From sequence record PZ386951.1: a DNA stretch of 64,000 bases; one strand, written 5' to 3'. The position numbers and the translations under genes were made by a program. Below are positions 1,189-20,864 of this stretch, piece by piece. The notes below the pieces were generated by a model. The model searched no databases. It saw only the letters and a program-made list of their open reading frames with translations, and was not told the DNA's origin. The stretch's first letter is position 1. Every line of letters begins with the position of its first letter. This DNA comes from a phage.

Positions 1189-2871
1189 TTAAACCATTAC
1201 AGTAAATCGACCGACTTTCTTCATTTGAAGATGCTGACCATATTCTTGCGGGTCATGGTCTTTATGCGAAATTATAAAAACATTAGTGTTTTTCATTGAA
1301 TTTATAATATTAGCTACACCTTTAATACCTTCGGCATCAAATGACCCATCAAACACTTCATCAAGAATTAATGTACTAATACTAACACCAGATACGATAG
1401 AAGCAATATCACGCCAAGTAAATAAAAGAGCAATATCGATTCGTGCCTTTTCACCTTCACTAAATGAAGCATAACTAAAATCTTCACGACCACGGGATTT
1501 AATTGTCTCATTAAATTCTTCATCTAATGTAAACACATAATCCGCTTCCATTATTTTAAGATAATGGTTAATCTGCTTATTAAATAATGGAATGTACTTT
1601 TTAATAATAGCACCTTTAATACCAGAATCTTTGAGCATATCAGTCAAAATTCCTCGGTGATATTTTTCCATTACTAAATTAGTTTTTGTCTTAACAATTT
1701 TATCAAGTTCTTCTTGAAGCAGTGCTATTTCGTCAGCATGGTCAATAAACTCAGAAGATGCTTTTTCTATAGCTGCTTTAACTTTTTTGGCTTTATCTAC
1801 CGTCGTGATTAGAGATTGCTTTTTATTGCGAATATCATTTGCCAACGACTGCTGGGTTTTAATATTATCTCGGTATTCATCAACAAGAACTTTTAAATTA
1901 TCACGATGTGTTGAAAGCTGTTCAAACGAATGCGTACATTCAGAAACTTTATCTTTAATTTTAGAAACAACTTTATCACCGGAACTCAATTGTGACAAAC
2001 AGGTTGGACATAATCCACCTTCGTGATACATATTAATGACTTTATTATATGAGTCAATTTTTGATTTAATTAAAAATGCTTCTTGACCGATTTTATTAAA
2101 TGCATCAGTCGGGTCTTCATCCAAAACAATATTAACTAATCTTTCATTAGCTTCTTCTATTTCCGATTTTAGCGTTCTAGCTTCTTTTGCCAAATCATCA
2201 TACATATTTTGTAGACGAGTAAGGTTGTCACCCGTTAATTTTTTCTGGCGTTCAACGTTATCATTATATATTTTAATTTGTTGGATAATACTATCTTTTT
2301 TAACATCAAGCACTTGGTTTTGTGAATTTAATTCACGTATTAGTGCTTTATTAAGCTTATCCATTTCAGCTAATGTTCCTACCTCAAGCAGGTCTTCCAC
2401 AAGCTTTCTTCGCGCAGGGGTCGACAAACCCATGAAAGGGGTATACCCTGCTGTACCAAGGACAACAATCTGCTTGAAACTGGCATATGACATTCCGATA
2501 AGCTGTTCAAATTCTGCTTGGAAATCTTTACTGCTGGCAGATTCATTAAGACGTGTACCGTTAACGGTGATTTCGAAAACGTTTGGTTTTTGTCCTCTTT
2601 TGATATAGTACTTTTTCTCATCATATTCCATCCACAGTTCAACTAAAAGTTCTTTCTTATTTGTGCTGTTTATTAATTGACCTTTCTTTACATCACGGAA
2701 TGGCTTGCCAAAAAGCCCAAATGTGATGGCTTCTAACATAGTAGACTTACCACCGCCATTTCGTCCAGTAATAAGAGTTTTTTGAACCTTATCTAATTGA
2801 ATGTCAATCCCATTTTGACCAACTGACATTATATTTTTATATTTTACTCTATTAAGTTTAAAATTCTTCAC
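1189..2871 (-). CDS. 46: recombination endonuclease subunit gp46 (Rad50/SbcC-like ATPase)
   Basis: 560 aa; Walker A GRNGGGKST near N-terminus, long central coiled coil, C-terminal ATPase half; length equals T4 gp46. Confidence 0.9.
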   Translation of the reverse strand: MKNFKLNRVKYKNIMSVGQNGIDIQLDKVQKTLITGRNGGGKSTMLEAITFGLFGKPFRDVKKGQLINSTNKKELLVELWMEYDEKKYYIKRGQKPNVFEITVNGTRLNESASSKDFQAEFEQLIGMSYASFKQIVVLGTAGYTPFMGLSTPARRKLVEDLLEVGTLAEMDKLNKALIRELNSQNQVLDVKKDSIIQQIKIYNDNVERQKKLTGDNLTRLQNMYDDLAKEARTLKSEIEEANERLVNIVLDEDPTDAFNKIGQEAFLIKSKIDSYNKVINMYHEGGLCPTCLSQLSSGDKVVSKIKDKVSECTHSFEQLSTHRDNLKVLVDEYRDNIKTQQSLANDIRNKKQSLITTVDKAKKVKAAIEKASSEFIDHADEIALLQEELDKIVKTKTNLVMEKYHRGILTDMLKDSGIKGAIIKKYIPLFNKQINHYLKIMEADYVFTLDEEFNETIKSRGREDFSYASFSEGEKARIDIALLFTWRDIASIVSGVSISTLILDEVFDGSFDAEGIKGVANIINSMKNTNVFIISHKDHDPQEYGQHLQMKKVGRFTVMV

Positions 2872-3131
2872 AAAAGATTCCTTTTAATGTATCTTTTAGA
2901 CCATTCTATCATATCATCATAATCTAAAAAGTATTCATCAAATTCAGCCATGCAAACAACGCCTTGTGCTGTTTTTGATGTGATATAAATTATTCCAACA
3001 TATCTAGAATCTTCTTCGGTATAATCAATGTTTGCTATGAATTCATCATTAATGTCAAATGTCGAAAACTTCACAGTATGCATCCTTAATACAAGATACA
3101 GCCATATCTCGTAATGATTTAGGTGTGTCAT
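2868..3131 (-). CDS. hypothetical protein (87 aa)
   Basis: ORF between genes 47 and 46; stop overlaps gene 46 start. Confidence 0.5.
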   Translation of the reverse strand: MTHLNHYEIWLYLVLRMHTVKFSTFDINDEFIANIDYTEEDSRYVGIIYITSKTAQGVVCMAEFDEYFLDYDDMIEWSKRYIKRNLL

Positions 3132-3318
3132 TATCTAAAATGTTGAAGTTAAAAGATACAGCCCAGTCAGTGCAGACTGTAACCTTTTTAATACAATTAT
3201 CTTCAACCTCTAACGGTTCAAACCAGTATTCAATAATTTCTTTATGCCCAATATCATCTTTTACTTCGCATTCAAAATGCTGACTCATCATAACATTTTT
3301 AAATTCATCAAAAGTCAT
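3055..3318 (-). CDS. hypothetical protein (87 aa)
   Basis: ORF overlapping neighbours by a few codons; start may be internal. Confidence 0.45.
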   Translation of the reverse strand: MTFDEFKNVMMSQHFECEVKDDIGHKEIIEYWFEPLEVEDNCIKKVTVCTDWAVSFNFNILDNDTPKSLRDMAVSCIKDAYCEVFDI

Positions 3319-4334
3319 TGTGTTGCCTCTACATATAACTGATTTGCATATTGAATAAGTGCTTCACGGTCAGAATCAGTGATGTCTGGAATTGCATTAA
3401 TATACTCTTCCATTAATGTCTGAAGCGATTGAACTTCAACTTCTTCACTGTCATCTGACTCGACAGAGTTATCAATCTTTGACACAACTCGTAATGAATG
3501 CACAACTTTTTCTAGTTCAGATTCGAACTTCGTCAGATTTTTGTCTACCTCAGTTACTATAACACGTACTGATAGATTTGTAAAATCTTTATAGTCAATT
3601 TTTCCTTTAAATGGATAATGAATTCTACGATGCCAGGTAGTGTTGTTTGGAATAAATTCCATTCGTTCTGTTTCTGTATCAAACATCCAGAACCCACGAG
3701 GGTCATTCTCGTCACCTGCAGTTAGTGTCCATGGTGTACCAATATATCTGACGTTAGCAGCCTCAGAGATAGTATGGAAGTGACCAGACCACACTTCTTT
3801 ATAAGTCTTAAGGAAATCAGGTTCAAGACCGTGAGATTTCATTCCTTTATAAAAATAAAATCCATTCAGCTCCCAGTGACCAACACAAAAAGAAGCAGAT
3901 GAAGTTTTGATGTGTTCAAGAATTTCACCAGTATTTTCTTCACACATCCAAGGAATTAAATCAATTAAACATCCGTCAAAATCTACTGTAGTAGGCTTAT
4001 CATATACTTTAACATTAGGATATTTAGCCAAAAGCTCAGTAGAGGCATTTGGATGCATTACATTTTTGTAGTGGAGATCGTGATTTCCTACAATAGTATG
4101 TAATGTGATTCCAGCACCATCAAGCATTTGAACTATTTCACGGGCAAACTCCATAGTTTTATGCGTGATTGCTTTTCGCACATCAAAAATATCACCATAT
4201 TGAATCCATACAGTAATTCCATTTTTCTTAGAATATTCTATCGCTTGCTTAATTCCATCAATTTGAATACCGCGAATCCACTCATCATCAGCTTTAACGC
4301 CTAAATGCCAATCACCTAAATTTAAAATTTTCAT
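3315..4334 (-). CDS. 47: recombination endonuclease subunit gp47 (Mre11/SbcD-like phosphoesterase)
   Basis: 339 aa; calcineurin-like motifs GDWHLG, GDIFD, GNHD, GHWE/GHFH; length equals T4 gp47. Confidence 0.9.
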   Translation of the reverse strand: MKILNLGDWHLGVKADDEWIRGIQIDGIKQAIEYSKKNGITVWIQYGDIFDVRKAITHKTMEFAREIVQMLDGAGITLHTIVGNHDLHYKNVMHPNASTELLAKYPNVKVYDKPTTVDFDGCLIDLIPWMCEENTGEILEHIKTSSASFCVGHWELNGFYFYKGMKSHGLEPDFLKTYKEVWSGHFHTISEAANVRYIGTPWTLTAGDENDPRGFWMFDTETERMEFIPNNTTWHRRIHYPFKGKIDYKDFTNLSVRVIVTEVDKNLTKFESELEKVVHSLRVVSKIDNSVESDDSEEVEVQSLQTLMEEYINAIPDITDSDREALIQYANQLYVEATQ

Positions 4335-12289: not shown

Positions 12290-12775
12290 TCAAGTATTGT
12301 AAAACATTTGATTCAATCGCTTATATTGCCGAATCTTTTGGTCAGAAAAAGAAATTTGAGTTTCAAGCCATTCAATATATTCTGCCGCAGCTTGCATCAA
12401 ATTTCCTTCATAGCCATCGTTATTTTCTTGTGCAGCTAATTTAGCTAATGCATATGAAATACGTTCACCTTGAAAATCGGCTTTAGGCTTCTGAACAACT
12501 TGATTAGTTCGCTCTACAACTTCTTCAATTTCGCCATTTTCGACTGATTCAGTATTCCACAAGCACCAATACGTAATTGGCTTATCGTAGATGTTAATAA
12601 TCTTTCCATCAGAAAGTTCAATTTCAATAATTCCAGTATCAGGCTCTATATCATCTTCGCATTCTTTTGCAAGTTCACGAACTTTAAAGACGGTGCCTGC
12701 ACTAAGTTCCGGCCAGTAATTACACAGCCCTGTATCAGCACGATTAATTCTAAACCACTTATCTACTGTAATCAT
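12290..12775 (-). CDS. pin: protease inhibitor Pin-like (by position and length)
   Basis: Track ORF begins with a TTG codon; first ATG (MITVDKW) gives 161 aa, the T4 Pin length. Synteny 49-pin. Confidence 0.5.
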   Translation of the reverse strand: MITVDKWFRINRADTGLCNYWPELSAGTVFKVRELAKECEDDIEPDTGIIEIELSDGKIINIYDKPITYWCLWNTESVENGEIEEVVERTNQVVQKPKADFQGERISYALAKLAAQENNDGYEGNLMQAAAEYIEWLETQISFSDQKIRQYKRLNQMFYNT

Positions 12776-12898
12776 GTCCCATCTCCATATCAATTAAGTC
12801 ATTTATCGTTGGTTCATTATATACTGTTTCTTCATCAGTGTAAACCGGTTCTTCCGGCTCTGACTCTACAGTTTCCCATCTAGCCGCCCACCAAGGTT

Positions 12899-13219
12899 TT
12901 ATAGCGTAATCCATTCTCGTACTGTCTGAGTTACTACACGTTCACGGGGCTCGACTAGTTCAACAGTCGGAACTGCATAATACCAGTCAGAATGATAAGA
13001 ACCTGACCGAGATTCATTTACCGCTACATGTACATTATGTTTTGGACTAAAGTAAACACACTGACGATATTGGCATTTACCATCTTGCACCCAGTCTTCT
13101 ATTTCAACAGGTTTAAGATAATCGGAAAAATCGAAATCATAGTTTTCCGAAAATGCATCATGGTCTTCAATGATTTCGCTCAGAACTGCATCAACATCTA
13201 ATTTATTTTCAATAGTCAT
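12899..13219 (-). CDS. hypothetical acidic protein (106 aa)
   Basis: ORF. Confidence 0.5.
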   Translation of the reverse strand: MTIENKLDVDAVLSEIIEDHDAFSENYDFDFSDYLKPVEIEDWVQDGKCQYRQCVYFSPKHNVHVAVNESRSGSYHSDWYYAVPTVELVEPRERVVTQTVREWITL

Positions 13220-13232
13220 TTTTCACCAATTA

Positions 13233-13400
13233 ATTTCGCAATTTATTAAGTTCTTCATCATCAATCCAGGATTCTAGTCCTGATGGCAGGGCACATTCAA
13301 TTTCCCAAAGAAGTTCTTCAATTTTATGAAGACGATCTAGTTCTTCAGCAGGAATAGTAACCATTGACGGAGCTCGTGATACATTAATATCGTAAATCAT
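13233..13400 (-). CDS. hypothetical small protein (~56 aa), below track cutoff
   Basis: Own translation: MIYDINVSRAPSMVTIPAEELDRLHKIEELLWEIECALPSGLESWIDDEELNKLRN; fills an otherwise ORF-free 180 bp gap. Confidence 0.3.
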
Positions 13401-13402
13401 AT

Positions 13403-13618
13403 TTACCCCAATTTAACCATACAATCGCCGTATTTCCACTTAGAAATAGACTTTTCACCATTAGAATAATAAACTTCGAGTTTAGCACGATTATTTTTAA
13501 TTTGAATAACCTTTGCTGTCATCAAAGTTCCATACCCATAATAAACTGCAACTTCATCACCTACATATACCGCGCTTCCGCGGTAATCATGAATATAGTC
13601 ATTTCCTTCGAGCATCAT
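13403..13618 (-). CDS. hypothetical protein (71 aa)
   Basis: ORF abutting nrdC stop. Confidence 0.5.
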   Translation of the reverse strand: MMLEGNDYIHDYRGSAVYVGDEVAVYYGYGTLMTAKVIQIKNNRAKLEVYYSNGEKSISKWKYGDCMVKLG

Positions 13619-13879: not shown

Positions 13880-14122
13880 TTATTCCTTAATTCCTAGTAC
13901 TTGTTTAAAAGTCTCGTCGTAATCAAGACTTTGGCCCGTTTGTTCTTTATGTTTGTATATAATATCACTTACTTCTGATAGCATATTTTTATATGAACGA
14001 GTTAAAGCAGATTTAAGCACGCTGTATCTATCAGGAAATTTACCATGTTCATTATAATAAGCTATTACTAATTCACGGACTGCCTTTTCAGCAGTCTCCA
14101 TATATTCTTTACGCTTGGTCAT
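13880..14122 (-). CDS. hypothetical protein (~81 aa; start chosen at internal Met)
   Basis: Track ORF 13880..14281 overlaps the Zn-ribbon ORF in another frame; N-terminal part is likely not translated. Confidence 0.4.
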
Positions 14123-14405
14123 TTTCTTCTCGGTCAAATCGGTGTTTACAATGGCGACATTTATAACGAAGATTATTAGTCTGCCAATGGACCAATTGCA
14201 CCTGTTCAGTTCCACATTCAGGGCAATTAGGAACGTTTTTAGAAGCCCTTTCGCGACGCTTAACCATAGCCATAATGGCATCCCATGCTGGAGGTTTAAA
14301 ATCTAAATCGTCAGTAACTAGCAGTCCTTTATCAAACCCAGCGCATGGAGTCCATTCAGGAAAATCTGAAGCTTCGGCAATATCTTCTAATAAACGCTTT
14401 TTCAT
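14109..14405 (-). CDS. small zinc-ribbon protein (98 aa)
   Basis: CPECG...(14)...CRHC four-cysteine motif. Confidence 0.55.
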
Positions 14406-15328
14406 TTCAGTATCTCAATAGCATCACGTAAACCATTTGCTTTGGCGGTTAAAGCCTTAAGAACTTTAGTATGCTCTTCAATCTGTTTTTCAACTTCAAT
14501 CAAACGAGCATTGAGATATTCGCGTTCTTCTTTCATAGTATCATTCCCATGATTGGATTTTGGTGTAGGTTTAAATTCACTAGGGTCCTTTAATTTAATA
14601 ACAAATTTAGTTTCAAACAGTGAAAGACCATAATTCGTATTATCATCAAAGGATTTGACTACATCCATATCAGATAATAACACGCGTAAATTATAAGCCA
14701 AAGAACTAATAGTTTCATTGTGTTTATTAGCTTCGCGTGGTTTCATATACGGAAGATTTTTATATATCTCGTGCGGAGCACAAACAATAATTGACAATTC
14801 AAATTGCCCATTCTGGGACGATGGAGTGAATTTAGCCGTAACCCAGTCTTTTACATTCACATTAATAGTACGGTTATCACCATGACAAAACAGTCTACGA
14901 GAATGCTTAAAAAGCATATTCACGTTATTATTGAATTCGTGTGAAAATTCACTAGCAAATTTTTCTTTACTATCTTTAGAAAACCATTCTTCTAAATAAG
15001 TTCTTTTCACGTCGTTAATAATATTAAATGTAACAACACTAGCATTTGATACATTAGTCTCAATGTAGCTTGGATACATAAATTTTTTAACATTATTAAC
15101 AGCTATCACAGAAGATAGTAATCGGGAACGTTTGAACCACTCTAGCAAAGAACCAAGAGAATGTGAATATGCATTTTGTGTATCTTTACAAATATGGTTT
15201 TCCCATCCAATATAGTCTAAAAAATCACGAAGAATATTATTGATTACTGCTCTGTGTCCAATCTGATAATTACGGTGTTTAGTAATAAGACTGTCAAAAT
15301 AATCAATATAATGTTTACGAGTTTTCAT
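14402..15328 (-). CDS. hypothetical protein, paralog family member A (308 aa, C-terminal coiled coil)
   Basis: N-terminus MKTRKHYIDYFDSLI resembles B (TRNEYIKSFNSVI) and C (MKTRSQIED); C-terminal ~45 aa heptad-rich helix. Confidence 0.65.
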   Translation of the reverse strand: MKTRKHYIDYFDSLITKHRNYQIGHRAVINNILRDFLDYIGWENHICKDTQNAYSHSLGSLLEWFKRSRLLSSVIAVNNVKKFMYPSYIETNVSNASVVTFNIINDVKRTYLEEWFSKDSKEKFASEFSHEFNNNVNMLFKHSRRLFCHGDNRTINVNVKDWVTAKFTPSSQNGQFELSIIVCAPHEIYKNLPYMKPREANKHNETISSLAYNLRVLLSDMDVVKSFDDNTNYGLSLFETKFVIKLKDPSEFKPTPKSNHGNDTMKEEREYLNARLIEVEKQIEEHTKVLKALTAKANGLRDAIEILK

Positions 15329-15380
15329 GTTCTTCTCACTTGGTTAATGATTTATACTCCGAGCCATCCTTGGCTTTAAA

Positions 15381-16383
15381 TTACTTAATTAACTGTAAAG
15401 CTTGTTCAAGACGATCAAGACGATTAACGGATTCTTCCCAAATCTTTTTAGCCTGCTCATATTCTTTCTGCGCTTTATTAGAAATTTCTAGAGCTTCTTT
15501 ATAAGCTTTTTCTAGTGCAATAACTTCTGGACGAATTTCTATCGGTTCAGGTGAATCGTCAAGACATTCCATTAGTTCCTCAAGGGTAGTTTCTTCTTTA
15601 GGAGTATTCACAATTTCATCACATTTTTGTTGATAAATTTCTTTATCAGTAGGTGAGTACGCGCACTTTACTTCACGAAGACTAATTACAATTTTATATC
15701 CTTCCCAACCGCATATATTCTTAAAAGGATAAGTATGAATATTTTCTACTGTTTCCATACAAAGTAATGCGGTCTCTAATTGACGAGTTATAGTGCTAGC
15801 AATTGAGAAAAATTTATTAATATTCTTTTGGTTAGTTTCTGGTGTAAAAAATCCATAATTCACAAAAATAGATACTTTATTTTTATCAAGTTCATATTCT
15901 TTTATGATAATCATATCAGAAGCCAAAGGATGAATTTGACGATAATCGCCATAACATAATTTAGAAGCTGATTTTAGAATCTGTCCTTTGAAAAGTCTGA
16001 AATTACTAATCCAACGACGAGTAAAAATATTCTCAGGGTCTTCTTTATTATTAAGATGATAAGAATTAACATCACCGAACCAATTATATCCTACTACATC
16101 TTTGGTTCGTTTAATTTCTTTCCCAAAATTACCAAGAATATCCCGATTAACCAAATATGAAAGAAGACGAGACTCTTTAAAGGTTTTCTTGATAAGATCT
16201 TTATCTACACGGCTAGAAATTTTACGAATTTCATGAATAAATTTAGTAGAAGAAACAATACTTGCATCAACACTATTGAGCCATTGATTGATAATAGAAA
16301 GAACGATATTTTGACCAAACATCGGTATAGCTTTATCATCAATAACGCTATTGAATGATTTGATATATTCGTTACGAGTCATA
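15381..16383 (-). CDS. hypothetical protein, paralog family member B (~333 aa, C-terminal coiled coil)
   Basis: Start placed at MTRNEYIK (RBS GAGGAG); the longer track start would overlap the promoter. Confidence 0.65.
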
Positions 16384-16411
16384 TTAATCTCCTCAGTAGA
16401 AAGTAAGAACA

Positions 16412-16441
16412 TTATACCACATCCTTGTGGCAAAGTAAACT
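16412..16441 (-). promoter_or_regulatory. T4-type early promoter (GTTTAC ... TGgTATAAT)
   Basis: Minus strand: GTTTACtttgccacaaggatgTGGTATAAT, immediately upstream of paralog B. Confidence 0.6.
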
Positions 16442-17468
16442 AGTTCAGTGCATTTAGTGCATTGTTCAGTTTAGAACGTTGCTTTGTCAGATTTTGAACC
16501 CTTGACTGAGCTTGTTCTAACACCTTTTCAGCTTCTAGCACTTCATTAGTTGCTTTAACGAGTTCATCATCTACTGCCTTAAGAGACTTCTCAATCGCGT
16601 CAGCGTGCCATTTTTCTACAGGTTTAAAATTTGAATTTTCAGTAGGAAGAAAACTCACTTTATTAAGTTTACATGCATCTATATTGCTTGAGCTATACAT
16701 CCAAAATTTAGGATCGTTTGATAAGTAATTGGATAAATTTAAATTTAAGTTATCTTGTACTTCCTGCTTTTTCTCTTGCGGGACTTCGTCCTTTCTCAAA
16801 AAATCGTATTTAAATGAAACGATCATATCAAGTTCATATGATGTTGTATCTAATTTAAATCGTTCAAAACGAGGTAAAATCTTAGATTGAACAGCAGCAA
16901 CAACATCCATATACTTAAATGCTTCTGTCAACTGTGATTTAAGGCATTCACAAATTGAAAGAGAATTTTTTGTATTAGGTTTAAAACTAATTCGCGCAGT
17001 TCTATTATTTTCTTTTAACGGTCTTACTTCCATCTGAAGAGTATAACCATCAAATTTCAGATTCTTTAAGTTAATATCAGAGCCTTTTAATCGACTAGAA
17101 GTAGACAAAATTTGCTTTAATTGTTTACGGAATAGAGCAATAAATCTCCATTCAATACGATAATGATTTGGATTGAAAAATCCAGATGATAAATCGACCT
17201 TACTCTGACCAACACCTTGAACAAATAGAGGATTTTTATAATCAATAGTTTTACAGAAATCGGTGAGCTGCTCACGAGCAGTCATTTGCGTAATATACCC
17301 TGCTTTACTAAAATTACGCACCCATTCACTGCTATTCGTATACTTAAAGTGATGAATAACACGATTAACTTTATCAGGGTCTAAATTATTTTCACACAAA
17401 AATGTCATAACATCACGAGTATAACTGGCATTACGAACCATATCTTCAATTTGAGAACGAGTTTTCAT
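16440..17468 (-). CDS. hypothetical protein, paralog family member C (342 aa, C-terminal coiled coil)
   Basis: RBS AAGGAA 5 nt before ATG. Confidence 0.65.
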   Translation of the reverse strand: MKTRSQIEDMVRNASYTRDVMTFLCENNLDPDKVNRVIHHFKYTNSSEWVRNFSKAGYITQMTAREQLTDFCKTIDYKNPLFVQGVGQSKVDLSSGFFNPNHYRIEWRFIALFRKQLKQILSTSSRLKGSDINLKNLKFDGYTLQMEVRPLKENNRTARISFKPNTKNSLSICECLKSQLTEAFKYMDVVAAVQSKILPRFERFKLDTTSYELDMIVSFKYDFLRKDEVPQEKKQEVQDNLNLNLSNYLSNDPKFWMYSSSNIDACKLNKVSFLPTENSNFKPVEKWHADAIEKSLKAVDDELVKATNEVLEAEKVLEQAQSRVQNLTKQRSKLNNALNALN

Positions 17469-17476
17469 AGTGTTCC

Positions 17477-18385
17477 TTAAGATTTAAGTAAATCAACAAT
17501 TTTAATTAACTTTTCACGCTCAGATTTAGCTTTACTACTCAATCCAGATAGTCTGAAAATTTCATCGTCATACTGTTGAATAGAAATATTCAGCTCTTCA
17601 ATTTGCTTATTAAAATAATCAATTTGTTCAGAATGTTTTTCGTTACTACGAACTGGTACATGTTTTGTAGGTAATTTAGATGAACTGGATTCATCCGGGC
17701 GATAAATTAAAATACAACTTGAACCAATCGGGCATTTTGCACCAGACGAATATTCTAATGTTCCGGCTTCTTTTAAAACTTCAAAAGCTAAACAGAGATG
17801 ATGTCCCATATTAACATAATCTGTAGAGCGAGCTCTGATATAATAATCATCGCCGCGAATACTAAATTTAAAGCATTTAAGGTCTTCTGTATTATTGGTC
17901 TTAAAAATCATTTGTTTATCTAGACCTTTAGCTAATCGAGCGCCTAATGCTAATAATCGTCGTTGATTTTCCCACAAATCTGCGATCATTTGGTCAAATG
18001 ATAATTTCGGCATTAGTCGACCGTAAAGATCATAGCCTTTATTATAATTGCGAAGGATTTCACTCGCATTAATACGAGACAACGCTCCAATTTTATTAAG
18101 GGCTTTCATAATGCGATTAGATAAACCCATTCCAGACCCGTTTGTTCGTTGTAAATGTTTATCTAATCCAAACCCAATATCAACTTTAAATTTATCTAAA
18201 ATTTCAGCATGAACATCTCTGTCAATAACATTCAAATCCAAAGTTGGGTTAAATCTATGAAAAAATTTATCTGGCTCTCCACGACGAAGTACAGTCCATT
18301 CATTCAATTTTTTATTAACTAAAGATTTAATTACTGCATTGACATTATTAATTACGACTGACATATTTTCCTCACTCAATTTCAA
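17477..18385 (-). CDS. hypothetical protein, paralog family member D (302 aa, C-terminal coiled coil)
   Basis: Same architecture (globular N-terminal region plus helical tail); start may be the internal MSVVINN. Confidence 0.6.
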   Translation of the reverse strand: MKLSEENMSVVINNVNAVIKSLVNKKLNEWTVLRRGEPDKFFHRFNPTLDLNVIDRDVHAEILDKFKVDIGFGLDKHLQRTNGSGMGLSNRIMKALNKIGALSRINASEILRNYNKGYDLYGRLMPKLSFDQMIADLWENQRRLLALGARLAKGLDKQMIFKTNNTEDLKCFKFSIRGDDYYIRARSTDYVNMGHHLCLAFEVLKEAGTLEYSSGAKCPIGSSCILIYRPDESSSSKLPTKHVPVRSNEKHSEQIDYFNKQIEELNISIQQYDDEIFRLSGLSSKAKSEREKLIKIVDLLKS

Positions 18386-18808: not shown

Positions 18809-18817
18809 ATTATACCA
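18809..18817 (-). promoter_or_regulatory. extended -10 element TGgTATAAT within a short inverted repeat (candidate early promoter)
   Basis: Minus strand TGGTATAAT flanked by ttatacc/ggtataa inverted repeat; no clear GTTTAC. Confidence 0.3.
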
Positions 18818-18834
18818 TCCTTGGTATAAAGCGG

Positions 18835-19827: not shown

Positions 19828-20796
19828 TTATTTCAGAAGAGTAACCTCAGCAATTTCTTCCCAACCGTTTTTGTCGGTCATAATAAAGTCAGCAAGATAA
19901 AGTGCAGTACGCAGTGAAACATTGCGTAAACGATTAACATTGACTTTCATCCATGATAATGCTTTATAAGTTTCTTCATCAGAAAGACCGCGCTTTTGCA
20001 TCATGTCAGTTGAAAGAATAACATCTTCAACCCTGACCATAATTTCTTCATTAGTGTGAACACCCAAATCCAAATAAACTGAGCGGGACACTAATGCTTG
20101 TAAATGTGGAGCAAGTTTAGTACCACGGTCTAATTCGCGGTCAATGTCAACGTTTGTGATAAAAACAATCGTTCCTTTAAATTCAAACTCACGCTCAATG
20201 CCTTTTTCTTCTAAGTAAGAAGATGCAGTGCTCCAGCAGACTTTACGGGTCTCTCCGGTGTCCAGAGCAGCTTTCAGAAGATTAAGAATGTCCATATCAG
20301 AGAAAACATCCACATCATCAATCAAAAGGACAGAATTCTCTTCACGATTATTCCAGAGCTGTTCATAAAGACCGATACCAGAGATTTTACCGTTAATGCT
20401 TTTATACTCAATGTATCCAATATCATTTGCTTTATTTAAAGCTTTATCTAAAGAATACGTTTTACCAATACCCGCCGCACCAGAGATAATTAATGAACGA
20501 ATGTTTCCGTTAATAATACCATTCGTCATCATTCCCATAACATTAAATCTTTTATTAATGCGGGTTTTCATATCTTCATATGATTCTTTAACTTCTTCAA
20601 CTTTTACACCATCATATGAAATGTCTGATTTGTAAACCCAAACACCACGACGTTTACCGTCAATTTCAACAAAAACTTTACCATCTCCTTGTGCATCTAC
20701 CGGAGCATTATCTGGGAACCATTCGCCTAAGAGCTCAAAAGTTCCAGAGATTTCTTTACCGAAGTAGATACCCTTATTGATAGTTACAGTTTTCAT
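19828..20796 (-). CDS. AAA+ family ATPase (~322 aa)
   Basis: Walker A GAAGIGKT, Walker B VLLIDDVD, sensor-like TIVFITN; start at MKTVTINKG (RBS GGAG), since the longer track start runs into the promoter. Confidence 0.7.
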   Translation of the reverse strand: MKTVTINKGIYFGKEISGTFELLGEWFPDNAPVDAQGDGKVFVEIDGKRRGVWVYKSDISYDGVKVEEVKESYEDMKTRINKRFNVMGMMTNGIINGNIRSLIISGAAGIGKTYSLDKALNKANDIGYIEYKSINGKISGIGLYEQLWNNREENSVLLIDDVDVFSDMDILNLLKAALDTGETRKVCWSTASSYLEEKGIEREFEFKGTIVFITNVDIDRELDRGTKLAPHLQALVSRSVYLDLGVHTNEEIMVRVEDVILSTDMMQKRGLSDEETYKALSWMKVNVNRLRNVSLRTALYLADFIMTDKNGWEEIAEVTLLK

Positions 20797-20834
20797 TTTT
20801 ATTCTCCAAATCTGTATCAGTAGTTGATAGTTGT

Positions 20835-20864
20835 ATAGTACCATAAAGCTTTATGCTTGTAAAC
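20835..20864 (-). promoter_or_regulatory. T4-type early promoter cassette
   Basis: Minus strand GTTTACaagcataaagctttatgGTACTATAC with conserved upstream ttttcacaaagtt. Confidence 0.55.

Follow-up and report, generated by a model that had tools for sequence, protein, structure and literature searches.

The nrdC.3-nrdC.6 array of a Tequatrovirus: tandem genes of head-plus-tail design and candidate anti-defence function

We analysed a 64,000-nucleotide stretch of phage DNA (sequence record PZ386951.1; hereafter the window) that carries, between positions 14402 and 18385, four consecutive minus-strand genes for proteins of 308, 333, 342 and 295 residues. The original prediction, made from the sequence alone, had described four consecutive genes of similar size, and these are present at the coordinates it gave; it had further read them as tandem paralogues that end in coiled coils and as a probable arms-race locus, and those claims fared less evenly. 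By megablast the array DNA is ~95% identical to T4, the window phage being a Tequatrovirus, and among GenBank phage records 510 match the 4.8-kb array stretch, with nucleotide identities of 80-99%; nearly all belong to Tequatrovirus. The T4 reference annotation names the four open reading frames (ORFs) nrdC.3, nrdC.4, nrdC.5 and nrdC.6, each a "conserved hypothetical protein", and transcription along the minus strand runs in the order nrdC.7,.6,.5,.4,.3,.2,.1, nrdC. The caveat that the four might simply be ordinary nrdC.x genes with known function thus holds by half: they are the annotated nrdC.3-nrdC.6, and one of them, nrdC.5, has a known phenotype.

The nrdC.3 orthologue (14402-15328, minus strand, 308 residues) is 92% identical in amino acid sequence to T4 NrdC.3 and matches phrog_1435 at E = 2.2e-100, with PF26897 assigned by transfer. 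Next comes the nrdC.4 orthologue (15381-16382, minus strand, 333 residues from the ATG at 16382; 98% identity to T4 NrdC.4, phrog_1435 E = 1.6e-168), followed, between nrdC.6 and nrdC.4 as in T4, by the nrdC.5 orthologue (16440-17468, minus strand, 342 residues; 95% identity to T4 NrdC.5), which is a full-length DUF7235 protein (PF23882, E = 7.9e-119, 397 bits against a gathering score of 30 bits). In the same PF23882 scan nrdC.3 (10.1 bits), nrdC.4 and nrdC.6 all fall under the gathering score. The nrdC.6 orthologue (17477-18364, minus strand, 295 residues from the ATG at 18364) is 97% identical to the T4 protein and matches phrog_2257 at E = 1.2e-151. All database relatives of nrdC.4 carry PF26897, as does the nrdC.3-derived part of database protein P0056, and relatives of nrdC.6 carry PF26899; curated libraries accordingly split the array three ways, into phrog_1435/PF26897 (nrdC.3, nrdC.4), phrog_2351/DUF7235 (nrdC.5) and phrog_2257/PF26899 (nrdC.6). 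The longest ORFs of nrdC.4 (15381-16433) and nrdC.6 (17477-18385) both begin at TTG, but these starts are probably unused and the ATG is favoured, in nrdC.4 because the TTG extension overlaps a promoter and the ATG has GAGGAG ahead of it.

Hundreds of GenBank records call nrdC.3-nrdC.6, and also nrdC.7, "thioredoxin", a label that has apparently spread from misread locus names of the form nrdC.N. Taken at its word, and with nrdC itself adjoining, the label would make the four proteins thioredoxin-like or nucleotide-metabolism factors. We regard this as having a negligible chance of being right: no thioredoxin or redox Pfam model matches at E up to 1, a CxxC motif occurs in 0/4 sequences, and the predicted fold combines a helical bundle, an alpha/beta sandwich and a long helix, so that sequence and predicted fold alike refute it. 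More generally, searches of Pfam, NCBIfam and PDB sequences with the four proteins returned no enzyme, known domain or solved relative.

Pairwise BLASTP among the four proteins reaches E = 0.003 for nrdC.3 against nrdC.4 alone, which is too weak for a verdict, and paralogy was therefore judged by profiles and structure. Profiles for hhalign combined database relatives with the copies from phages RB69, VR25 and EcWhh-1, and the natural nrdC.5::nrdC.3 fusion P0056 was excluded from the nrdC.5 set; because coiled coils can give false similarity, the comparisons were redone on the heads, with the last 55 residues deleted. Under this scheme nrdC.3 and nrdC.4 align at 98.6% probability (E = 8e-16; 98.3% outside the coiled coil), nrdC.3 and nrdC.5 align end to end at 87.5% (E = 3.6e-6), and a pooled nrdC.3+4 profile aligns with full-length nrdC.5 at 76% (E = 2.2e-5). 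Between heads, nrdC.4 against nrdC.5 gives 84.7% (E = 6.7e-6) and pooled nrdC.3+4 against nrdC.5 gives 89.7% (E = 1.8e-6), which rules out the tail as the source of the nrdC.4/nrdC.5 similarity; the nrdC.3 head alone loses the signal against the nrdC.5 head (2%) and needs pooling with nrdC.4. An N-terminal motif, M(K)TRxxYIxxF, is also common to nrdC.3, nrdC.4 and nrdC.5 and varies little or not at all within each family. Judged by these alignments, the three are homologous, nrdC.3 and nrdC.4 clearly and nrdC.5 distantly.

The fourth gene is a different matter. Alignment of nrdC.4 with nrdC.6 yields 25.9% (E = 7.3e-4, 197 colinear columns) and the pooled heads of nrdC.3, nrdC.4 and nrdC.5 align with that of nrdC.6 at 40.7% (E = 2.9e-4), the best of a set of comparisons (1-41% probability) that all stay below significance, while the nrdC.6 N-terminus reads MSVVINNV and lacks the TRxxYI motif. 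Both the claim of four tandem paralogues and that of related N-termini hence stand for nrdC.3, nrdC.4 and nrdC.5, with tails removed in the former case, and lack significant sequence support for nrdC.6, whose link comes through predicted structure. The other nrdC-region proteins tried as further members, namely nrdC.8 (also helical-tailed), nrdC.2, nrdC.7, nrdC.9 and nrdC.10, along with Acj61p118 of an Acinetobacter phage, were rejected at hhalign probabilities <1%.

For the predicted fold, AlphaFold2 models of nrdC.4 and nrdC.6 (predicted local distance difference test scores of 81 and 75) present the same order of elements: an N-terminal helical bundle, three short strands, two helices, a hairpin, a long helix, a second hairpin, a low-confidence linker and a terminal helix. 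Searched with Foldseek against BFVD, the nrdC.4 model retrieves NrdC.3 from phage fPS-65 (E = 1.3e-8) as well as JS10 NrdC.6 (E = 4.1e-5, probability 1.0), the latter at template modelling (TM) scores of 0.41/0.48, so that the structural check proposed with the original prediction came out in favour of a link, if at modest scores for NrdC.6. It also retrieves proteins of 300-375 residues from T4-like phages of Acinetobacter, Pectobacterium, Erwinia, Serratia, Enterobacter and Klebsiella, and the nrdC.6 model has five third-party proteins in common with it.

One may still hold that nrdC.6 is no paralogue, being an unrelated protein that acquired its coiled coil independently or by convergence and is a chance neighbour of three true paralogues. 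Its non-significant profile similarity, the missing N-terminal motif, a broken tail helix (described below) and TM-scores of just 0.41-0.48 all suit such a view, but it then has to account for a Foldseek probability of 1.0 at E = 4e-5, for two models with five matches in common among proteins of other T4-like genera, for an identical secondary-structure order over ~240 residues, for weak profile alignments that are nonetheless colinear from residue 1 to ~220, and for an nrdC.6-type gene within the same array in Mosigvirus, Gaprivervirus and Dhakavirus. We consider coincidence unlikely; nrdC.6 very probably belongs to the same family, though more diverged than the others, and is linked weakly by sequence and mainly by predicted structure. 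On the models, all four proteins appear to share one layout, in which a basic N-terminal helical bundle and a basic alpha/beta core are joined by a variable, low-confidence linker to an amphipathic C-terminal helix of 45-55 residues. The heads have a net charge of +7 to +11 and an isoelectric point (pI) of 9-10, and the tails are slightly acidic. An Ocr-like DNA mimic was ruled out, the heads being basic rather than acidic.

That each protein ends in a heptad-rich helix of ~45 residues, as had been proposed, was upheld by counting L/I/V/M/A at the 13 a/d positions of the last 45 residues and comparing the count with 2000 shuffles of the same residues. The putative coiled-coil tails, all on the minus strand, score 11/13 in nrdC.3 (residues 263-308, 14405..14542; reached by 2/2000 shuffles), 10/13 in nrdC.4 (residues 285-333, 15384..15530; 5/2000; a single helix over 285-332 in the AlphaFold2 model) and 12/13 in nrdC.5 (residues 286-342, 16443..16613; 0/2000). 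In nrdC.6 the tail (residues 242-295, 17480..17641) scores 9/13 (15/2000) and is not continuous in the AlphaFold2 model, where RLSGLS interrupts it between helices 242-271 and 277-294. A profile hidden Markov model of the tail matches nothing among the window proteins beyond the four array genes, and the extreme C-terminus of all four carries a similar LxxA(I/L)xxLK-like motif.

Tail identity is 61-67% in the nrdC.4 family (45-50% overall) and 61-69% in the nrdC.6 family (36-46% overall), and the nrdC.5 tail is retained in P0057, a relative of 38% identity. In these three families the tail is the most strongly conserved segment; in the nrdC.3 family (tail 67-78%, overall 56-62%) it is second to the N-terminal helical domain (66-85%). 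The most variable parts of each family are usually the linker and the alpha/beta core. Many near-invariant tail residues sit off the core a/d positions (W315, E316, E317, R321, E326 and Q327 in nrdC.4; D266, D267, E268, K280, E282 and R283 in nrdC.6), a pattern that would suit a dedicated contact surface better than a non-specific zipper. Two reference records bear on the tails in their own right. In reference T4 (AF158101, 7990-8900) nrdC.6 is given as 275 residues and is frameshifted relative to the window (295 residues) and T4 GT7 (296 residues), with the coiled-coil tail ...ISIQQYDDEIFRLSGLSSKAKSEREKLIKIVDLLKS legible in another frame, either through an old sequencing error or through a laboratory-strain mutation. 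In RB69 (NC_004928, 5973-7000) the annotated nrdC.5 of 300 residues has a non-helical end and the usual tail, ...LRDAQSVVTNLQLQYSKLFNAMNALKS, is encoded in the +2 frame, so that the gene is frameshifted, either because it is a pseudogene or through a sequencing error.

An early promoter before the second copy and an extended -10 element after the array had both been called in the original prediction, and both are present as sequence features. The former, an early-type promoter with an internal stem-loop (16411..16439, minus strand; GTTTACT..CCACAAGGATGTGG..TATAAT), lies before nrdC.4 and consists of GTTTACT, a 17-nt spacer holding the stem-loop CCACAAGGATGTGG, and TGgTATAAT, agreeing with the consensus at 10/12 positions plus the TG. 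It fits the PST/T4-type early promoter consensus TTTACW-N17-TAYWAT (PMC2839356, PMC4122927) and is identical in T4. Three other genera have kept it ahead of nrdC.4 or nrdC.3: a cassette of GTTTACW, CCAAGGATGG and GGAGTATAAT precedes nrdC.4 in VR25 and EcWhh-1 and nrdC.3 in RB69. The extended -10 element, TGGTATAAT at 18817..18809, lies without a good -35 beyond the high-coordinate end of the array, upstream of nrdC.7. By motif comparison it forms, with CCAAGGATGG, a truncated copy of the cassette (18809..18824, minus strand) before nrdC.7-nrdC.6-nrdC.5, genes spaced by 7-8 nt, and a decayed copy (ATTTAA..GCCAAGGATGGC..TATAAA; 15351..15381, minus strand) lies before nrdC.3. Three copies are thus found in the window array, besides conserved copies in four other phages. 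The motif CCAAGGATGG alone occurs 4 times in the window where 1.9 would be expected, which is no statistical enrichment (12/100 shuffles reach 4); the case for the cassettes therefore rests on where they lie and on how well the promoter as a whole is conserved.

Repeats of this general kind are known from the hyperplastic regions of T4-type phages, where cassettes of early promoter plus stem-loop (PeSL) mediate deletion, duplication and replacement of accessory genes (Arbiol 2010; Comeau 2014; PMC2839356, PMC4122927). Like those, the array cassettes flank variable accessory genes and coincide with deletion and replacement boundaries; unlike them, the array stem-loop (CCAAGGATGG) sits inside the promoter spacer rather than forming a separate terminator, although a sequence scan flags it as terminator-like, a prediction. 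PeSL-type cassettes would offer a mechanism for promoter-plus-gene duplication and for allele swaps, and we infer that recombination has taken place at these copies.

To follow the array across phages we searched the GenBank phage set with tblastn, which finds nrdC.3 in 654 records, nrdC.4 in 554, nrdC.5 in 532 and nrdC.6 in 742; this set was used for distribution in place of IMG/VR, where a scan with nrdC.3 gave 2 loci only. A HMMER search of 1.84 billion representative proteins with the nrdC.5 profile returned 13 clusters only, each of them a T4-like fragment or an artefact; the family is thus very narrow, and nothing connected it with other families. The copy-number check across T4-like genomes shows natural variation from 1 to 4 array genes. 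RB69 (Mosigvirus) has nrdC.6, nrdC.5 and nrdC.3; VR25 (Gaprivervirus) and EcWhh-1 (Dhakavirus) each have nrdC.6, nrdC.5 and nrdC.4; and in ACG-C40 (Tequatrovirus) a deletion runs from nrdC.5 codon ~72 to nrdC.3 codon ~240 (L007 6802-7213) and leaves nrdC.6 intact. Among database proteins, P0056 is an nrdC.5::nrdC.3 fusion and P0231 (173 residues) joins an unrelated head to an nrdC.5 tail. Further afield, two of the Foldseek matches, p120 (330 residues) and p121 (304 residues) of the Acinetobacter phage Acj61 (Twarogvirinae), are encoded by a tandem gene pair immediately upstream of nrdC, and each has a coiled-coil tail. This arrangement, in a T4-like phage of Acinetobacter, marks the array as both old and syntenic.

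Rates of change differ within the array. Gene-wide ratios of nonsynonymous to synonymous substitution rates (dN/dS) against three Tequatrovirus relatives are 0.17-0.30 for nrdC.3, 0.10-0.21 for nrdC.4, 0.14-0.22 for nrdC.5 and 0.05-0.08 for nrdC.6; the corresponding values for nrdC, nrdC.1, nrdC.9 and nrdC.10 are 0-0.08, with one value of 0.15. These values mark all four as genuine genes that purifying selection maintains. Comparison across genera gives 23-55% identity for the array proteins (nrdC.5 23-27%), as against 66-92% for nrdC, nrdC.8 and nrdC.10. Within Tequatrovirus nrdC.3 falls into two allele classes, at 92-99% and about 60% identity, and the divergent allele has a synonymous divergence (dS) of about 1.0, compared with 0.1-0.2 in neighbouring genes. 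Because this allele is 80% identical to the RB69 gene, the sequence comparison indicates that nrdC.3 has been replaced between genera. The suspicion of an arms-race locus accordingly receives moderate backing for nrdC.3-nrdC.5, which evolve faster than their neighbours and vary in copy number, and none for nrdC.6, which is as conserved as those neighbours; all dN/dS values are at or below about 0.3.

The functional anchor of the array is nrdC.5. An evolved T4 clone carrying deletions fails to plate on ECOR17, and deletion of dsr1 in ECOR17 restores plating (PMC9391042); conversely, plasmid-borne ECOR17 dsr1 shields MG1655 from the evolved clone, and expression of T4 nrdC.5 restores infection (Srikant, Guegler and Laub, eLife 2022; PMC9391042). 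Dsr1 combines a SIR2 NADase with a TPR sensor, and the sensor is reported to recognise the major capsid protein (PMC12803255). Two other genes of the same early region are published counter-defence genes, gp49.2 as an inhibitor of OLD (PMC13096335) and nrdC.1 as an inhibitor of Septu (bioRxiv 10.1101/2025.11.20.689424), and T4 is viable after loss of the block nrdC.1-6 (PMC9825161). An NAD-regenerating enzyme was considered as the route of the anti-Dsr1 effect and set aside, as no enzyme family signature was detected.

Taken together, these observations make it probable, in our judgement, that the array is a tandem family of early-expressed accessory proteins, dispensable on laboratory hosts, that act as stoichiometric immune inhibitors, one of them against Dsr1. 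The family would have arisen by duplication of promoter-plus-gene cassettes and been reshuffled by recombination at the repeated promoter/stem-loop cassettes. Its proteins may be non-enzymatic, stoichiometric inhibitors made before the host sensor fires, in which the variable core and linker of the head would pick out a particular host immune protein and the conserved C-terminal helix would oligomerise the inhibitor, dock on the target, or both. By analogy with DSAD1 and DSR2 (see below), the target of NrdC.5 would most simply be Dsr1 itself, and nrdC.3, nrdC.4 and nrdC.6 could play the same role against other defence proteins or against other variants of Dsr1/Avs7-type sensors. Inference enters this picture at three points, namely that the target is bound directly, what the helix does, and which defence proteins, if any, nrdC.3, nrdC.4 and nrdC.6 act on; these three genes are good anti-defence candidates, and candidates is what we take them to be.

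Several points weigh against this interpretation. The T4 NrdC.5-Dsr1 result is a genetic rescue of a deletion phage with the T4 protein rather than a demonstration of binding (PMC9391042), and the searchable literature reports no function for nrdC.3, nrdC.4 or nrdC.6. The basic heads would equally suit nucleic-acid binding, and association of the tails into dimers or higher forms is putative, a matter of prediction. The remaining points concern nrdC.6: its profile comparisons with the other three are non-significant, the fold comparison that joins it consists of two moderately confident models (nrdC.4 and nrdC.6), with TM-scores <0.5, and its strong purifying selection, at 95-99% identity across Tequatrovirus, is unlike that of a fast arms-race gene. 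The functional suggestion made from the sequence therefore fares well on early-promoter drive, dispensability and the published counter-defence role of nrdC.5, and poorly on the profile link and selection signal of nrdC.6.

From the same points the strongest competing account can be built, namely that only nrdC.5 is a counter-defence gene and that the other three, the conserved and basic nrdC.6 above all, serve some other early function, such as nucleic-acid binding or modulation of host or phage transcription or replication, with their basic heads dimerised through the coiled coil. The charge and pI of the heads fit it well, as do the high conservation and low dN/dS of nrdC.6, which resemble those of a housekeeping accessory gene, and the lack of a published defence phenotype for nrdC.3, nrdC.4 and nrdC.6. 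It sits less easily with the dispensability of all four on laboratory hosts, with the position of the array among three published anti-defence genes and with the Pfam and NCBIfam searches, which detected no known DNA- or RNA-binding domain in the four proteins. We rate it as somewhat unlikely, albeit a serious contender. A bolder version of the immune-inhibitor reading strikes us as quite improbable: that the proteins are ancient, cassette-shuffled, modular immune antagonists across Straboviridae, whose core would derive from a tail-terminator-like virion protein and serve as an early decoy for structural-protein sensors, with each paralogue or nrdC.3 allele tuned to a different Dsr1/Avs7-type TPR sensor and the C-terminal helix as the common docking or oligomerisation element.

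T4 is a reference phage in which most early accessory genes are still without a function, and nrdC.5 accounts for host range on an E. coli that carries Dsr1. Should the genes beside it prove to be diverged versions of the nrdC.5 design, they provide three concrete counter-defence candidates, a natural specificity series for mapping target choice (two nrdC.3 alleles, together with nrdC.5, whose identity between genera is 23-27%), and a worked example of promoter cassettes that duplicate and swap anti-defence genes.

Around the array, nrdC.2 (14109-14405) overlaps nrdC.1 with its 3' end and the end of nrdC.3 with its 5' end; of the small genes nearby it varies most (63-87% amino acid identity within Tequatrovirus, pairwise dN/dS up to 0.62), and it may be another fast-evolving accessory factor. 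Upstream of the array, nrdC.10 (19828-20844; 322-338 residues) has a Walker-A-like GAAGIGKT and, to judge from this motif, is probably a P-loop ATPase; its conservation (99-100% within Tequatrovirus, 78% between genera) contrasts with that of the array. The nrdC-pin stretch (12290-13400, 13403-13618) differs from T4, and its 71-residue ORF at 13403-13618, absent from T4 but shared at 99% conservation by four further Tequatroviruses, occupies the region in which T6 gp49.2 (anti-OLD) lies. The early region of Acj61 (1229-3938) encodes a nicotinamide phosphoribosyltransferase and a ribose-phosphate pyrophosphokinase, two enzymes that make up an NAD+ salvage or reconstitution route known to counter NAD-depleting defences.

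Set beside known systems, the locus is a partly known anti-defence island and not a new kind of system, the genes themselves and the nrdC.5 phenotype having been described already. Our analysis adds the link between three database families, the head-plus-tail design with its conserved tail, the deep tandem synteny upstream of nrdC across Straboviridae, the promoter-cassette context and the nrdC.3 allele replacement, and it corrects a widespread mis-annotation as thioredoxin. The closest comparison is T4 NrdC.5 (DUF7235, anti-Dsr1), of which the third array gene is the orthologue; the other three share its architecture, and nrdC.3 and nrdC.4 are detectable homologues, but nrdC.3, nrdC.4 and nrdC.6 lie outside DUF7235 (best score 10 bits against a cut-off of 30) and have no reported phenotype. 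These three genes are full-length members of the NrdC.3/NrdC.4 (phrog_1435, PF26897; nrdC.3 and nrdC.4) and NrdC.6 (phrog_2257, PF26899; nrdC.6) families, which databases keep as separate from each other and from DUF7235, whereas profile comparison and predicted structure together would join all three into one fold-level superfamily that reaches phages of Acinetobacter, Erwinia, Pectobacterium, Serratia, Enterobacter and Klebsiella.

In terms of mechanism, NrdC.5 may be a functional analogue of DSAD1, an inhibitor from SPbeta-group phages that binds the SIR2 NADase defence protein DSR2 and blocks recognition of a structural-protein trigger; the target of DSAD1 is DSR2 rather than Dsr1, binding by NrdC.5 is predicted, and profile searches that covered every PDB chain, and thus presumably any DSAD1 chain deposited from the DSR2-DSAD1 cryo-EM studies, gave no match. 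Unlike tail terminators (lambda gpU, SPP1 gp17-like, DUF3168), the array lies behind early-type promoters in the nrdC hyperplastic region and not in a late morphogenesis module. In its overall plan it resembles the T4 dmd-tifA-adfA "anti-TA (toxin-antitoxin) island", an early, dispensable counter-defence cluster in one transcription unit, with gp49.2, nrdC.1 and nrdC.5 in the corresponding roles here; the genes of that island are mutually unrelated, whereas those of the present array are, with the reservation made above for nrdC.6, four adjacent paralogues.

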